Origin: Candidatus Saccharimonadia bacterium
Lineage (GTDB): Bacteria; Patescibacteriota; SICC01
NCBI GenBank assembly: GCA_025449535.1
Contig: JANWJF010000001.1
Span: 677,136-741,135, forward strand
Length of the DNA stretch: 64,000 nt
Reading direction: 5' to 3'
The first letter of the stretch is position 1. Each line of letters starts with the position of its first letter. Of this stretch, positions 2,423 through 32,154 are shown one piece after another. The notes under the pieces are model-generated. The model worked only from the letters and a program-made list of their open reading frames with translations, had not been told where the DNA came from and searched no databases. Both the position numbers and the translations under genes were made by a program.

Positions 2423-2663
2423 GCACTCGAACAACGGCGGCCGGTCGGTCATCAACACGACCCCGGCCGCCCGCGTTCACCTCCTCCTGCTCACACATCT
2501 CGTATCCTTGCTTGCCGATTTACGGCCCGCTTTCGTTTTGCTACCGTTGGAATACGGAACCGCTGAAAACACACGGCGGCTTTCTTTTTGTCCGCGATTC
2601 GCTCTTGATCGGATTGCGTGTCTCACAATCAGGTCAGGAGAAGACGAACGAAGGGAGCAATGG

Positions 2664-3011
2664 ATGAGCCCCGCAGTTGCCGAAGCACCCTCAAGAACCA
2701 AGCTGGGGATTCCGGACCGGTCGCTGGACCAGCGCATGGACGCGCTGAAACATGCCAACGACATCCGGACCGCCCGAGCCAAACTCAAGAAGGACCTCAA
2801 AGCGAGAAAAGCGAGCATCCATGAGTTGCTGCTCGACCCGCCCGAGCACACGCTGACCATGAAGGTCTTCGATCTGCTGCTCGCAGTCCCGAAGTACGGG
2901 CGGATCAAGACCAACCGGGTGCTCAACCAATGCCGGATCTCGCCCTCCAAGACACTCGGCGGACTCTCGGAGCGGCAGCGCCTGGAGCTGGTCAACTATC
3001 TCCGCCGGTAG
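2664..3011 (+). CDS. integration host factor mIHF-like DNA-binding protein, copy 2 (tandem paralog)
   Basis: Same domain architecture as 2015..2422 (ARAKLKKDL…GGLSERQRLEL); ATG at 2664 with a GAAGGGA ribosome-binding site. Confidence 0.55.
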   Translation: MSPAVAEAPSRTKLGIPDRSLDQRMDALKHANDIRTARAKLKKDLKARKASIHELLLDPPEHTLTMKVFDLLLAVPKYGRIKTNRVLNQCRISPSKTLGGLSERQRLELVNYLRR

Positions 3012-3187
3012 GTCCGCCGATGTCCGTGCACGGAGCGGCCGGCCTGGTCAAACTGCGACCCCGCCGGCCGCTCCCCAGCACACCCTCCTGACCTGATTTC
3101 CTGAATACCCTCGTGTCACGCGGGTCGGGTTTCGATATCACACGACTCGCGATTCATTCGCAAGTCGACCCCGAAGCCAGTCGCGTC

Positions 3188-3221
3188 ATACACGTTCGAA
3201 ACCACGGTTTCGAACGTGTAT
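3188..3221. repeat. perfect palindrome with 16-bp arms and a 2-nt spacer (ATACACGTTCGAAACC ac GGTTTCGAACGTGTAT)
   Basis: Read directly from the sequence; lies between convergent genes and at the high-GC/low-GC boundary. Confidence 0.8.
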
Positions 3222-3228
3222 ACAGTCT

Positions 3229-3262
3229 GTGGAGTTGAGCGGGCGTCTTTCGAACCCCGCCT
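3229..3262. repeat. degenerate copy of the tRNA-Ala 3' end (putative att-like direct repeat bounding the islet)
   Basis: gtggagttgagcgggc…tcgaacc…gc matches the plus-strand image of the tRNA-Ala 3' end at 5218-5250 (gtggagctaagcgggctcgaaccgc), 14/16 identical in the first block. Confidence 0.5.
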
Positions 3263-3291
3263 TCAGGCAGAACCTGGCCAAGCTCCTAAGG

Positions 3292-3843
3292 CTAATCCGG
3301 CAGACTCGTTTTTAAATCGTTGAGGAAATCTGCGAGAGATACTATCCGGCAGTTGTACTGCCCAGTGTCTACTGCTTTGAAATCTTTGAGATTAGTGGTT
3401 ACAAGTACGTCACAGCCGAGACGTTCTGCAAGCGAGAAAATGGAAGCATCTGCTTGGCGTTGGTTACGATTCAACCACTGGCGGCTATCCAGTGGTGGTT
3501 TTCCTTGACGCTCGCGCTCCTCGTTGTGTGTGGAGAATGCTGCTTGAGTATCAGCCACTTCACGGCGAATCTCTGAATAGCCGTTTCCTCCTGCGAGTAT
3601 ATCTGGGCCGCCAATAGCTGAGACACCAATTGTGAAGTAACGAGTGTCGTCTTCTGTAAAGCGCTGCTGTAGCAACGTCCAATTACTTTGCCCCGATTCG
3701 GTAAGACGACTCTCGTCAAACTCATCGAGCACTGCACTGACGAGTATGTAATCGTATCCCTCAGGGCTACTGAGGATCGCTTTAGTCATGTGTTGATCCT
3801 GGCAAGCGTCGATTAGGGCGTTAGTGTCAAAAGCGATTAGCAT
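3292..3843 (-). CDS. PIN-domain protein (VapC-like nuclease toxin candidate), ~183 aa
   Basis: N-terminal IAFDTNALID acidic motif and C-terminal GCDVLVTTNLKDF motif typical of PIN domains; ATG at 3843, alternative TTG at 3903; low-GC islet. Confidence 0.6.
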   Translation of the reverse strand: MLIAFDTNALIDACQDQHMTKAILSSPEGYDYILVSAVLDEFDESRLTESGQSNWTLLQQRFTEDDTRYFTIGVSAIGGPDILAGGNGYSEIRREVADTQAAFSTHNEERERQGKPPLDSRQWLNRNQRQADASIFSLAERLGCDVLVTTNLKDFKAVDTGQYNCRIVSLADFLNDLKTSLPD

Positions 3844-3874
3844 CTCGTTTCTAGTATGCTCCAACACAGAGGCG

Positions 3875-4036
3875 CTAACGTTTCTGCTCTCGAACAGCCG
3901 CAAGAACCCTGACTAAATCAGTGAGGTGCCGCTCTCGCTCAACTTTCCGCAAGCTGTATTCGAGCAGCGCCTTCACGTAGCCATCCCAGTCGGGCGGATT
4001 ACGCCGTACGCCCTCGATAGAGAGATCAGAAAGCTT
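3875..4036 (-). CDS. small ORF immediately upstream of the PIN gene (possible antitoxin partner, ~53 aa from a GTG)
   Basis: Position and size fit a type II toxin-antitoxin layout; the N-terminal extension of the 126-aa stop-to-stop ORF looks non-coding (Arg-rich); start uncertain. Confidence 0.2.
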   Translation of the reverse strand, partial: KLSDLSIEGVRRNPPDWDGYVKALLEYSLRKVERERHLTDLVRVLAAVREQKR

Positions 4037-4274
4037 CACGCGCTGCCTCCGGAGCTTCTGTGGCCTCCTTGTTACCACCCAGGTGTATCCGGCAAAGACC
4101 CGAGCGCCGGAATGAAACAGCCGATGCGTGAGCGTGGCACTACAGAAAAGCACCGGTCGTGATCGCCGGCCGGTAGTAAGGGGATAGCGATAGTCAGCCT
4201 GCTGTTTGGAAGCAGTCCCGAACTCGACAGTGCGTGGCTTGCGCGGTCTTCCCACCTACCAACCATACGCTGAC

Positions 4275-4287
4275 GGGGGGGGGGGGG
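4275..4287. repeat. G13 homopolymer tract
   Basis: 13 consecutive G residues ~50 bp upstream of the ATG at 4336, in the divergent intergenic region. Confidence 0.9.
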
Positions 4288-4335
4288 CAATCAAGGTGCC
4301 TTGTAGCGTGTAACTGTCAGTCCTATGCTCGATCT

Positions 4336-5094
4336 ATGAGTAAAGACGATCCGAAGCAAGCCCTAACTACTGTTACAGCAACAGAGCTCAGTGAGCGCAA
4401 GCCAATCACACAGATAATTCACAGGCAGTTAGAAAATCTCCTCCAATACGTTCCAGGTTTACTCGAATCTACAAAGGGCGAGAACGCGACGCGTCTGAGT
4501 CGACTCCTTCAGGCTTTTAATTCTGGTCGATTCATCCAGCAACTTGATAAGGAGCTCGCAGACTTAAGGAAGAGCAGTTCTATTAAGGATGATTATTTCG
4601 TTCAAGAGCAAGCGCTTGAAGGTCTTCAGATTTTATTCGAGTTTATTGACGAGGACTCTCCTGACCTGGTGCGGTTCGAAGCTATGAAACAGGTGTTTCT
4701 AACAATGTGTCAGGAGAAAGACAATTTATCTGACCGAAACGATCCTATTCCTACGCAGTTACTCAGAATCTGCCGAGGACTATCTTCGGGCGAACTGATC
4801 GTCTTGACGACTGCCTATAAATTACGAACCGAAGTAAAAGAAGAACGTAAGCAGGGGAAGCAACCGATTGGGTACTGGCATGAGGAAATTGCGCAGGGCA
4901 GCGGTCTCGTATTTCCAGACCTCGTAGATTTTCACGAAAGAAAACTAATGGACAAGAACCTCATTACTCCGCGGTACCAAAATGACGACCTTATTTATTA
5001 CGGAGCGAAGAATCGTTTAACTGACCTAGGTGAAACACTTTGCGAGTTCATTGGCGAGCTTGATCCCCGCCACCCAAATCCTTTAGCTAAGTGA
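4336..5094 (+). CDS. hypothetical protein, 252 aa, carried on the low-GC islet
   Basis: Long ORF at ~40-45% GC with clear coding periodicity; no recognisable motif. Confidence 0.5.
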   Translation: MSKDDPKQALTTVTATELSERKPITQIIHRQLENLLQYVPGLLESTKGENATRLSRLLQAFNSGRFIQQLDKELADLRKSSSIKDDYFVQEQALEGLQILFEFIDEDSPDLVRFEAMKQVFLTMCQEKDNLSDRNDPIPTQLLRICRGLSSGELIVLTTAYKLRTEVKEERKQGKQPIGYWHEEIAQGSGLVFPDLVDFHERKLMDKNLITPRYQNDDLIYYGAKNRLTDLGETLCEFIGELDPRHPNPLAK

Positions 5095-5218
5095 TCAGTT
5101 TTTGATTTGACGACTGTTCAAGGGTTCGACAAAGGCCCTTTAACTAGTATTAATGGGACAAGAATCGAAACGCCGTAACTGCGGTATTTAATGAATTGTT
5201 CGAGAAACGTTTTGTCTG

Positions 5219-5291
5219 TGGAGCTAAGCGGGCTCGAACCGCTGACCTCCTGCATGCCATGCAGGCGCTCTACCAACTGAGCTATAGCCCC
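5219..5291 (-). tRNA. tRNA-Ala (anticodon GGC)
   Basis: Cloverleaf read from the reverse complement: GGGGCTA acceptor stem, anticodon loop AUGGCAU, T-arm GGTTCGAGCC; CCA not encoded. Confidence 0.9.
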
Positions 5292-5357
5292 AAGTGCATT
5301 TCTTATCCTAGCATCGGCCTCCGCTCTTTCTGTAGGCCATCTCGGCGCCTGCCGGCA

Positions 5358-5390
5358 GGCGGACACCACGATGCCAACTGAGCTATAGCC
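5358..5390 (-). pseudogene. truncated 5' fragment of tRNA-Ala (GGCTATAGCTCAGTTGG) followed by the shared junction motif CATCGTGGTGTCCGCC
   Basis: 17-nt exact copy of tRNA-Ala positions 3-19 lying ~85 nt upstream of the intact gene; the rest does not fold as a tRNA. Confidence 0.5.
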
Positions 5391-5925
5391 TCGCGCGTAA
5401 GAGTATACCGAAGAAAAAAGTTCGACCCGGACATGTCGCGTGAAAGCACACATTCGGGTCGAAGGAAGCCTGGCCCCGCCGCAGCTGGGAATCCACTTGG
5501 CAGTAGAGTGCCGCGGCGGGGCTGGCAAGCGCGTCCGGAGGATCCCTTGACCAGGGACATGTCGATCGCGCAAGTTTCGTGGGTCGTCTATCGGACAGGC
5601 CAAGTGGCTAAAGACGGTTTACAAACCGTCCTCTCCTTGGTGCCAGAGGACGTCCAGCCGGACCCACGCTGTTCGATCTCCAGCAGATGACGCGGCCTAC
5701 CAGCAGACAGGGAGGGATGGCTCGCGTAAATTCACCGCCAAAGAGAACAAGTCTGGTAAGGTGTTGGCAAAAGCCTTACCTTAGTAAAGCCGTTTTTCAT
5801 CATTGCCGCAACCATGTCGACGCGTGATAAGATTGAAGTGATGCATACCGTGAACCGAAACCGCTTTTTCTTTCCCACCTCCGGGCGGTCTTTGGCATGA
5901 GTTAATCACGAACGCATCCGTACGA

Positions 5926-16798: not shown

Positions 16799-16814
16799 CT
16801 TCACGTGACAACCC

Positions 16815-16910
16815 GGAGGAGTGGCAGAGCGGTTGAATGCAGCGGCCTCTAAAGCCGTCAGTTCCCCGCCGGGGAACTTCCCACCAAGGGTTCGAATCCC
16901 TTCTCCTCCG
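16815..16910 (+). tRNA. type-II (long variable arm) tRNA with anticodon CUA; Ser-like identity (G73 discriminator, GGAGGAG acceptor stem); predicted amber-suppressor tRNA-Ser(CUA), or a pseudogene
   Basis: Manual fold: acceptor GGAGGAG/CTCCTCC (an 8th C-G pair is possible), U8, 3-bp D stem with an AGCGG…GG loop, anticodon stem GCGGC/GCCGU, loop CUCUAAA (34-36 = CUA, A37 A38), ~27-nt variable arm with a GTTCCCC/GGGGAAC stem, T-arm AAGGG-TTCGAAT-CCCTT; one base away from a Ser-CGA anticodon loop. Confidence 0.55.
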
Positions 16911-17510
16911 TTCCGGGTGCTGGCGTTCATCGCTGGAACTCACTGTTTATGAGATTGCGGGTAACACCGCCCCCGGAGTCACTTGCTGCGCAAGCAGCAC
17001 CTGCTGCGTACGGACCCGTTCGACTGGGGACCGTACTCAGGTCGGCGCGTGGCTTTTAGAGCCAGGTCGCGTGCCGGATCTTCTCCCTCGGTCGATCCGA
17101 CCAGGGAAATCGTGCGCCGAACTGTCAGGGACGGCGTCCGCAGCGCGAACGAACCGCGCCGCGACCACGAAGCGATCCATCGGGCGATAGGGGCGATGGA
17201 ATCGCAGCAGTGCCGTCGTTTCGTCCGTGCTCCGAGACGACGGTGGGCCTCAACTCATCAGGCCTATGACGGTCCGGGAGCCGGTATCTGAGACCTCGAC
17301 CTCAGCTGCCACCAAAAGGCTCCCGGACCGGAACTTCCCCCAGCACGCGGCCACGACCCATCTCGGGTTCGACACATCAGCCGCTTTCCGACTTCGCAGA
17401 CCATCCAATCTCCGAAGACTTGAATACGAAGCTCGCAAGCCTTCACCGGCGCCCCACGCGAGCTTCTTTCAATTGTGCTCGGAATCCTGCCGGATAGTAC
17501 GATTAGGGGC

Positions 17511-30443: not shown

Positions 30444-30851
30444 TTGGTTACGGTACAATACGCAACCATGATTGAGAGTGAAGAAAAGTTCGTAGATCCG
30501 GATCTGGCTCGTGAGCTGACGGGCGAGGAACTTCCGGAGCCTGACCCGGAAGGCGACCCGTCGCTGGAAGAGAAGCCCGTCGAGGACTATGTCGGTGGCG
30601 AGTTCGTCGGCGACCGCCAGCTTACGGTTCTGGTCCGCGAGGACGAGGGTCCGATGGAGTATCGGATCGGGTTCTGCGATCAGGGAATCGTCTATGACAG
30701 ACGCCCTATGGGTACGTCGCCCGCAGACCGGCCGACCCCCATCGATCGGGATGCGGCGCCGAAGCTAGCCCAGGAGGCGGCTGATGGGTTGCTGATGCGG
30801 TATGTGCCGGAGGCCAGGGAAGTGCTCAGGAAACAGCAAGGGGCTGATTGA
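30444..30851 (+). CDS. acidic hypothetical protein (135 aa; the ATG at 30468 is also possible)
   Basis: ORF between two tRNA-Leu genes. Confidence 0.4.
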   Translation: MVTVQYATMIESEEKFVDPDLARELTGEELPEPDPEGDPSLEEKPVEDYVGGEFVGDRQLTVLVREDEGPMEYRIGFCDQGIVYDRRPMGTSPADRPTPIDRDAAPKLAQEAADGLLMRYVPEAREVLRKQQGAD

Positions 30852-30970: not shown

Positions 30971-30976
30971 CAATCG

Positions 30977-31058
30977 ATATACATTTCCGGAGCCTCGGCT
31001 CCGGAAATGCGAGACGCTACCGGGCTCGGGTCGATTCGCAAGTGAATTGCGAATCGAG
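30977..31058 (+). ncRNA. 82-nt structured element, copy A (ATATAC, 13-bp hairpin, GCGAGACG…GGGCT.GGGTCGA linker, 11-bp hairpin, TCGAG), immediately 3' of tRNA-Leu(GAG)
   Basis: Paralogous to 32021-32102, with compensatory stem changes; function unknown. Confidence 0.45.
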
Positions 31059-31085
31059 ATGGTATCTAATCCCGATTGCATGATG

Positions 31086-31129
31086 TCGATGCTACGATAG
31101 TCTCGTTCGCGGGCACTTAGCTCAGTTGG
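31086..31129 (+). pseudogene. 44-nt duplicate of the tRNA-Val promoter region plus the first 21 nt of tRNA-Val (truncated 5' tRNA fragment), followed by CATCGTGATGTCCGCC
   Basis: Identical to 31186-31229; after GTTGGC it diverges into a 56-nt non-tRNA sequence. Confidence 0.6.
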
Positions 31130-31209
31130 CCATCGTGATGTCCGCCGAGTGAACGAGGGGCGATGCTTTTCCGCTTCTCATCGCGCCGATGCTACGATAG
31201 TCTCGTTCG

Positions 31210-31283
31210 CGGGCACTTAGCTCAGTTGGCTAGAGCGCCTCGTTTACACCGAGGAAGTCGGGGGTTCGAGTCCCTCAGTGCCC
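31210..31283 (+). tRNA. tRNA-Val (anticodon TAC)
   Basis: Cloverleaf with anticodon loop UUUACAC; TACGAT/TAGTCT promoter-like sequence upstream. Confidence 0.9.
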
Positions 31284-31716
31284 ACACGATTGAGTCGGTC
31301 AGTACTGGTTGTTACGATAGGGCTACGCTTTTGCAGCTTCAAAGTTTCACTGGCACGTGTCTTCGCCCAGTTAGTGCTCAGCCCTAGGGCAGTCGACGAT
31401 CCTCCTCTAGGCGAGCTTGGCACACGGCTCGTCATGTCCTGGACGCATCCCTGCCCGTTCAGGAGCGACCAGCCGGTGGAAAAAGACCTTTCGGAATCGT
31501 CTGCGAAGAGCGGCTCCGGAAGGCACCTCTTCAAAACCTTCTTCGACACCCACGGTCCCACACCTGTCGAAGAACCCGGATCCGGTCGTCTTGCGTGGCG
31601 CGAGAAGGGCACATCGCCGACACCCTTCGCTAACCGCGACAGCAGACGACCGGATCCATCTTCATTTTTGGGCATCCCTACGATGACCCTTCCTTCGGAA
31701 AGGGTAGATTGCGGGT

Positions 31717-32017: not shown

Positions 32018-32020
32018 TCC

Positions 32021-32102
32021 ATATACGTTTTTCAGCGCAAGCGCCGAAAAACGCGAGACGTCACTGGGCTGGGGTCGACTCACGGCGAAGCCGCGAGTCG
32101 AG
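32021..32102 (+). ncRNA. 82-nt structured element, copy B (same architecture as 30977-31058), immediately 3' of tRNA-Phe
   Basis: Shared ATATAC start, GCGAGACG…GGGCT.GGGTCGA core and TCGAG end; both hairpins are preserved by covarying sequence. Confidence 0.45.
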
Positions 32103-32154
32103 CTTCTATTCGATTTCGTGCACACGAGCACTAGTTGCTATACTTTAATCCGTT

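Follow-up and report, generated by a model that had tools for sequence, protein, structure and literature searches.

Short inserts with displaced 5′ fragments at the D loop of tRNA-Val and tRNA-Ala in a Candidatus Saccharimonadia genome

Upstream of two tRNA genes of a Candidatus Saccharimonadia bacterium, tRNA-Val and tRNA-Ala, stand truncated copies of the 5′ ends of the same genes, and both copies run into a similar non-tRNA sequence. Do these structures record one type of event at two tRNA genes and, if so, which type? An earlier note on this DNA had suggested a single event type, and had named as its possible cause either an element that targets the D loop or a conserved leader or attenuator. 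The window (the whole stretch of 64,000 nucleotides that was analyzed) is chromosomal Patescibacteria (CPR) DNA of about 63% G+C that carries leuS, smc, uvrABC, ligA, dnaE, clpC and a PBP gene; nine tRNA genes were found in it by ARAGORN and eight by Rfam. Extending the genome by 15 kb added one tRNA and no fragment. Thus, about 79 kb of the ~0.81-Mb genome of one species was inspected, and it holds two copies of the structure, here called cassettes, among 10 tRNAs.

At the Val locus, the 44-nt direct repeat CGATGCTACGATAGTCTCGTTCGCGGGCACTTAGCTCAGTTGGC was found in two exact copies with a period of 100 nt (Table 1), as had been described, at coordinates one base left of those in the earlier note. 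The block is composed of CGATGCTACGATAGTCTCGTTCGC plus GGGCACTTAGCTCAGTTGGC. Copy 1 runs on as CATCGTGATGTCCGCC (31131-31146) and then as 40 more bases that are not tRNA sequence. Copy 2 leads into the intact tRNA-Val(TAC), which scores 70.6 bits with the Rfam tRNA model and is spaced 239 nt from tRNA-Leu(GAG).

At the Ala locus, on the minus strand, GGCTATAGCTCAGTTGG is present at 5374-5390 and 5273-5289, with a period of 101 nt. The duplication of 17 nt noticed earlier is an exact repeat; in the gene it corresponds to nt 3-19 of tRNA-Ala(GGC). With one mismatch allowed, the repeat covers 19 nt (5374-5392 and 5273-5291) and starts at tRNA +1. The mismatch is GAGG in the orphan fragment versus GGGG in the gene (G2A in the orphan relative to the gene). 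The orphan fragment is followed by CATCGTGGTGTCCGCC (5358-5373), and a perfect palindrome, GCCTGCCGGCAGGC, lies between this junction motif and the promoter block. The end of the leader, GCACTT (5292-5297, minus strand), directly precedes tRNA-Ala +1 and equals nt 3-8 of tRNA-Val; it is a weak signal, and it may be a relic of a Val-type cassette.

Table 1. Coordinates of the features at the two loci (window positions)
Feature	Position	Strand	Basis
Val repeat copy 1: -10-like block, 11-nt leader, orphan 5′ fragment	31087-31130	+	exact 44-nt match to 31187-31230
Val copy 1, extended -10-like block	TG 31090-31091, TACGAT 31093-31098	+	sequence reading
Orphan tRNA-Val 5′ fragment, nt 1-20	31111-31130	+	inside the 44-nt repeat
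Val segment X, insert-specific, 56 nt, starts with CATCGTGATGTCCGCC	31131-31186	+	unlike the rest of tRNA-Val (p = 0.17)
Val repeat copy 2 (31187-31230) and intact tRNA-Val(TAC) (31211-31285)	31187-31285	+	ARAGORN, Rfam
Val promoter block (putative) GCCGATGCTACGATA	31185-31199	+	before intact tRNA-Val
Orphan tRNA-Ala 5′ fragment, nt 1-19, GAGGCTATAGCTCAGTTGG, displaced ancestral 5′ end	5374-5392	-	upstream flank orthologous to the tRNA-Ala promoter of relatives
Ancestral tRNA-Ala promoter region: terminator-like hairpin, T run, TATACT -10	5393-5460	-	aligns with L068 and L069
Ala cassette, 82 nt: CATCGTGGTGTCCGCC, palindrome, promoter block, 13-nt leader	5292-5373	-	absent from L068 and L069
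Ala promoter block (putative) GCCGATGCTAGGATA	5304-5318 (TG 5312-5313, TAGGAT 5305-5310)	-	part of the Ala cassette
Intact tRNA-Ala(GGC)	5218-5291	-	first 19 nt are the insert-borne copy; body native-like, close to L068

Both tRNA genes are broken at the same point, after GTTGG in the D loop, as the earlier note had it; Val has one extra, ambiguous C. Around the break, tRNA-Val and tRNA-Ala have TAGCTCAGTTGG in common. Both orphan fragments are followed by the junction motif CATCGTGRTGTCCGCC, in which 15 of 16 bases are identical. In a fixed register and at the base composition of the window, this identity has a probability of about 3e-8, so that the similarity pointed out before is significant against base composition. 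The junction motif has no other match with up to two mismatches in the window.

A second common block, GCCGATGCTASGATA, is identical at 14 of 15 positions (P ~1e-7) and, in the alignment of the Val and Ala loci, is written as GCCGATGCTA[C/G]GATA. It lies 44 nt (Val) or 45 nt (Ala) past the first 13 bases of the junction motif and is followed after 11 or 13 nt by the intact tRNA. The window contains it twice at Val, within the 44-nt repeat, once at Ala and nowhere else. The 39 nt in the centre between the two blocks match at only 7 positions. By consensus match, the second block reads as an extended -10 promoter (TGnTACGAT and TGnTAGGAT), and its distance to the tRNA resembles that of the TATACT, TATAAT and TAGACT boxes before the other tRNAs of the window. 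The gap between fragment and gene is 80-82 bp in both loci and contains no ORF, no integrase and no element body. Since two common blocks enclose an unrelated centre, each locus can be described as one unit of about 100 nt, consisting of the junction motif, a variable centre, the promoter block, a leader and tRNA nt 1-19/20. The comparison of the two sequences shows that the Val and Ala cassettes are homologous and of equal length.

A plain tandem duplication does not account for the structures, since the 56-57 nt that follow the fragments are unlike the rest of the tRNA (p = 0.17 for Val and 0.97 for Ala). The idea that this segment is the decayed remainder of a duplicated tRNA was also rejected; its length fits the missing part, but sequence similarity is lacking.

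The orthologous loci of relatives were fetched via UvrC and LeuRS homologues. Both structures are absent from four related Patescibacteria genomes (74-84% protein identity). For the Val locus, GCA_040902515.1 (L063, UvrC 78%) and GCA_964525455.1 (L065, UvrC 74%) have the order tRNA-Leu(CAG), 33 nt, tRNA-Leu(GAG), 23 nt, tRNA-Val, with neither the orphan fragment nor the promoter block. Thus, tRNA-Val of the relatives is the third gene of a tight Leu-Leu-Val cluster and has no promoter of its own, whereas tRNA-Val of the window is preceded by the promoter block, as judged by consensus match. The closest relative (L076, UvrC 85%) is uninformative on Val, because its contig stops exactly at tRNA-Leu(GAG). 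A homologue of Val segment X was sought in the relatives and not found.

For the Ala locus, tRNA-Ala(GGC) is uninterrupted and without a fragment in GCA_030699935.1 (L068, LeuRS 78%) and GCA_040900285.1 (L069, LeuRS 75%, UvrC 84%). Accordingly, uninterrupted empty sites are available from two relatives for each locus. In L068 and L069, a hairpin, a T run, TATACT and a 9-nt leader are located immediately 5′ of tRNA-Ala; in the window, the same stretch is located immediately 5′ of the orphan fragment, with TATACT at 5402-5407, 9 nt before it. At least 48 nt upstream of the Ala orphan align with the native promoter and leader of the relatives, and the gap in this alignment is the inserted unit. 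Since the DNA upstream of it is orthologous to the native tRNA-Ala promoter, the Ala orphan is the ancestral 5′ end, left with the ancestral promoter. The body of the functional tRNA-Ala differs from that of L068 in one compensated pair of the anticodon stem. According to the alignment, about 101 bp were inserted after D-loop position 19 of tRNA-Ala. When all fetched CPR loci were scanned for orphan tRNA ends, only the Val and Ala fragments of the window were detected.

Because both structures are absent from the relatives, they are derived insertions. Together with the homologous ends of the inserts, their equal length and their identical D-loop position, this absence bears out the proposal that the same type of event took place at both tRNA genes.

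As for the nature of the event, we tentatively prefer the reading that the cassettes are scars or miniature non-autonomous derivatives of two related tRNA-targeted elements, one specific for tRNA-Val and the other for tRNA-Ala. In such an event, DNA of about 100 bp would go into the D-loop position of each tRNA gene, carrying in order CATCGTGRTGTCCGCC, about 39 variable nt, GCCGATGCTASGATA, a leader of 11-13 nt and fresh tRNA nt 1-19/20. The original 5′ end would be pushed upstream as a dead fragment, at Ala together with the original promoter, and the tRNA gene would be rebuilt behind the new promoter. The gene would survive because the incoming DNA brings a copy of the displaced part. Sites of recombination or binding would explain the conserved end blocks, of which the right-hand one would double as a promoter. 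A site-specific recombinase would be responsible, larger parent elements would exist or would have existed, and the new promoters are presumably active.

Three observations fit this reading: the identity at Ala starts at tRNA +1, the ends of the cassettes are conserved around a free centre, and a 3′-side scar is present at the same tRNA-Ala. The start at +1 fits a targeted insertion, since only the tRNA part would need to match the target. Neither a recent copy nor neutral decay fits conserved ends around a free centre as well as sites of recombination or function do. An element on the 5′ side would also have to bring a promoter, and the putative promoter block sits before both restored genes.

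The 3′-side scar is a decayed copy of the T-loop-to-3′ end of tRNA-Ala with its trailer, at 3225-3256 (score 31 versus 14 ± 2.3 for shuffles, with 0 of 500 reaching it). Between tRNA-Ala and this copy there are about 2 kb of low-GC DNA (3225-5217, minus strand; 52-58% G+C) with three unassignable ORFs, for which Pfam, PHROGs and PADLOC gave nothing. This region is a classical, integrase-less island remnant. Thus, tRNA-Ala is a recombination hot spot, because a 3′-side integration signature joins the 5′ cassette at the same gene. We also considered whether the Ala 5′ fragment and the 3′ fragment belong to a single tRNA that was interrupted by an element of 2.1 kb with a tRNA-Ala of its own. This was rejected; the stretch before the 3′ fragment is unlike tRNA nt 20-52, and the island and the cassette are therefore treated as separate events. 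Inside the island there is a run of 13 C (4275-4287, minus strand). Among the same-species assemblies, L082 ends at 4287, L080 has mismatches and a gap, and L079 has a 1-nt indel in the compared stretch. The run could be a slippage-prone or phase-variable tract.

Several findings speak against tRNA-targeted elements. No integrase is present among the ORFs tested in the adjacent island, the junction motif has no obvious inverted partner for the D stem, and random internal deletion does not account for two scars of equal size. Furthermore, the identity at Val reaches 24 nt upstream of the tRNA, and the older fragment expected beside tRNA-Leu is absent. Since the Val identity spans promoter and leader and no older fragment is present, Val needs an extra step, either a second round after the gene had been rebuilt or the inclusion of the host promoter in the identity block.

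Further copies were sought by scans with exact patterns, which miss diverged copies; the genome of the window itself is evidently not among the scanned collections. In the GTDB representatives, TTGG N0-1 CATCGTGRTGTCCGCC gave 32 matches, none of them beside a tRNA fragment. In JGI metagenome contigs, AGTTGG N0-1 CATCGTGRTGTCC gave 29 matches, all unrelated and mostly at gene starts. In IMG/VR, the junction pattern gave five matches, at least three of which are apparently on the same contigs as the JGI chance matches, and the patterns of motif 1 followed by motif 2 and of the promoter block followed by the D loop gave 0 matches each. A full-length element with an attP (promoter block, tRNA 5′ part and motif 1) was not found by the exact-pattern scans of the three collections, and blastn of both cassettes against phage records gave no match. 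Thus, of the suggested D-loop-targeting element, the common target position stood, while its support is indirect: an element body, a recombinase, clear terminal repeats and further copies were found neither in the 79 kb nor in the GTDB, JGI and IMG/VR scans. The cassettes seem not to be widespread.

The GTDB matches of the junction pattern lie mostly in thioredoxin-fold genes. This is because the junction motif together with the preceding TTGG spells codons of the thioredoxin-fold active site, (F)WASWCPP(C), at 5356-5377 (minus strand) and 31126-31150 (plus strand). The Ala copy runs on as TGCCGG.CAG, like the next active-site codons. The resemblance could reflect an origin from a pseudogene, or it could be a coincidence.

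This resemblance bears on an explanation that we regard as unlikely, namely an accident of repair or replication with filler DNA. A break or a stalled fork in the D-loop region would be followed by a template switch at the TTGG microhomology, and a foreign stretch and the promoter-proximal part of the gene would be re-copied, the common template lying elsewhere in the genome. Since motif 1 with TTGG reads like FWASWCPPC codons and the Ala copy continues likewise, segment X may be pseudogene-derived filler joined at TTGG; however, the active site of the trxA gene in the window differs from the junction motif at the DNA level. The lengths of the duplications (17-19 versus 44 nt) are unlike an enzyme-defined stagger, and the lack of recombinase genes and of an element body is in agreement with an accident. 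On the other hand, two independent events would have to coincide in their template, in the exact base of entry and in the distance of 44/45 nt to the promoter block. No source sequence was found in 79 kb of the genome or in the relatives, and a single common template would not be expected to yield conserved ends around an unrelated centre. If the structures are repair scars seen twice, they are a curiosity of one species.

It is doubtful that the cassettes are MITE-like elements of about 70-82 bp with an outward promoter, which insert at GTTGG in the D loop and make a long target duplication. Promoter-bearing miniature elements are known; the Correia elements of Neisseria are small, highly repeated and duplicate TA. 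They are similar to the cassettes in having an insert of about 100 bp with imperfect inverted ends and a promoter for the adjacent gene. In our case, motif 1 and the reverse complement of the promoter block form imperfect inverted repeats (10/15 at Ala and 9-10/15 at Val) whose pairing is present in the Val fold, and the length of the element is equal at both loci. However, with offsets taken into account, this signal of inverted repeats is weak (p of roughly 0.01). Between the duplicated bases and the putative right inverted repeat stands a leader of 11-13 nt, different at the two loci, so that the two do not adjoin. The duplication has no fixed length (17-19 versus 44 nt), and at Ala it starts exactly at tRNA +1. 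Unlike the Correia elements, the cassettes number just two in the window, each in a tRNA D loop, and their long duplications lie away from their ends.

The other suggestion of the earlier note, a cis-acting leader in which the tRNA 5′ mimic and the motif serve as an attenuator, a decoy or a processing signal kept by selection, is very improbable. The two conserved blocks around a free centre speak for it, and if transcription from the old promoter read through, base pairing between the fragment and the 3′ half of the following tRNA would be possible. Nevertheless, one of the conserved blocks is simply the promoter block. In folding energy, fragment plus cassette does not surpass shuffled sequences (z = +0.2 to -1.4), and different folds are predicted for Val and Ala. 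Rfam at gathering thresholds and at E<=1 matched tRNAs only. Moreover, the structure is missing from all four relatives, and the Ala fragment already carries G2A. These results do not support a conserved leader or attenuator.

An assembly artefact, through a chimeric join or through strain variants collapsed where tRNA sequence is conserved, is very unlikely. It is true that the contig is metagenome-assembled and that breaks at or near tRNAs are frequent in contigs of the relatives and of this species. But the Ala structure is identical in an independent same-species assembly (L079, Ga0373473), made from a different sample; the Val-adjoining ORF is found with the same neighbours on eight long contigs; and an artefact would not create non-tRNA motifs common to two loci.

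Returning to tRNA-targeted elements, we compared the cassettes with known systems. CIMEs are stretches of DNA stripped of their recombination module and flanked by att-type repeats; they are kilobases long and located at 3′ ends. The cassettes are like CIMEs and other decayed att-flanked remnants in their att-type repeats, and differ in being about 100 bp long and promoter-carrying. Integrative islands at tRNA genes are a closer likeness. In the Islander collection, 159 of 3919 islands displace a 5′ fragment of the tRNA gene, whereas displaced 3′ ends are the rule (PMC4383910). Integrases are known to cross over in tRNA genes at the anticodon loop and at the T loop or its junction, but no known class of them uses the D loop (PMC4383910). 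Like such islands, which are integrated by tyrosine integrases, the two loci pair an intact tRNA with a displaced fragment of the same tRNA gene that has its orientation and lies on the side expected; the insert makes good the displaced part, together with a promoter block of its own, and the site is empty in relatives. Three points set them apart: an insert of about 81 bp that has neither integrase nor cargo, against the minimum of 2 kb set by Islander; a boundary located in the D loop instead of the anticodon or T loop; and two scars of equal size whose ends are conserved. Thus, the cassettes are not members of this class as defined, and a tRNA-gene island with 5′ displacement is their closest working likeness.

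In the tRNA-dependent lysogeny of actinobacteriophages, a complete, separate tRNA gene comes in with the phage, no junction is restored, and the core of about 10 bp lies in the 3′ half (PMC10865867). As in that system, tRNA sequence borne by an element and expressed from element DNA would compensate for a broken host tRNA gene. In contrast to it, a 5′ part supplied by the element would here restore the gene at its site, and there is no phage.

If the targeting reading is right, tRNA genes are hit on their 5′ side at the D arm, and the promoter and the first 19-20 bases are replaced. Island finders, which look for at least 2 kb, require an integrase and use anticodon-loop or T-loop sites, would never report such cassettes. 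The reading would also provide a concrete mechanism for the rewiring of tRNA transcription units in streamlined CPR genomes. The further step, that the cassettes represent an undescribed class of miniature promoter-carrying integrative cassettes which recombine at the tRNA D arm and swap in their own promoter and 5′ end, is speculative and improbable at present. Such cassettes may be mobilised in trans by a recombinase elsewhere, for example that of a CPR phage or plasmid. If this class is real, it would add a fourth sublocation for tRNA-gene targeting, and it would be a route by which small-genome CPR bacteria split tRNA operons into separately transcribed genes. In practice, such orphan fragments can mislead tRNA annotation and break assemblies.

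Other features near the tRNA genes were observed. A two-hairpin module of about 85 nt is present in three copies directly 3′ of tRNA ends, after tRNA-Leu(GAG) (30972-31060, plus strand), tRNA-Phe (32018-32105, plus strand) and the displaced tRNA-Ala 3′ fragment (~3130-3228, minus strand). Its conserved boxes are TATAC, GCGAGACG, GGGCTnGGGTCGA and TCGAG, and compensatory changes are found in 14 of 27 predicted pairs. The module is absent from the orthologous sites of the relatives and has no Rfam match. Homology of the cassettes to the 3′ half of the modules after tRNA-Leu and tRNA-Phe was rejected, since they match in just G..GTC and the Phe-Gly promoter is native.

Upstream of tRNA-Ala, about 450 nt of non-coding DNA (~5440-5900, minus strand) are conserved in L068 (7180-7640, minus strand) and L069 (7750-8210, minus strand), with a terminator end just before the tRNA-Ala promoter. 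A long-range helix with some compensatory changes is conserved in the three genomes, and there is no Rfam match; the region is a candidate unannotated RNA gene. In the relatives, trxB is located 10-20 nt from tRNA-Ala. In the window, two tandem paralogous ORFs (1907-2422 and 2508-3011, plus strand) lie in the interval from trxB to the tRNA-Ala region, where the relatives lack them. They resemble integration host factor of the actinobacterial type, and one of them matches the H2TH_5 domain.

Near tRNA-Val, a homologue search with the 127-aa ORF that adjoins the locus matched the ORF itself alone. A small acidic ORF lies between the two tRNA-Leu genes (30468-30851, plus strand) and also in L076 (4631-4975); it is absent in the 78% and 74% relatives, where these tRNAs are 33 nt apart. 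Finally, a 98-nt tRNA with the anticodon CUA and a long variable arm is encoded at 16814-16911 (plus strand); ARAGORN labels it 'Pyl', and it scores 58 bits with the Rfam tRNA model. This tRNA may be an amber suppressor. At its place, the relatives have other odd tRNAs (L063, 726-977).
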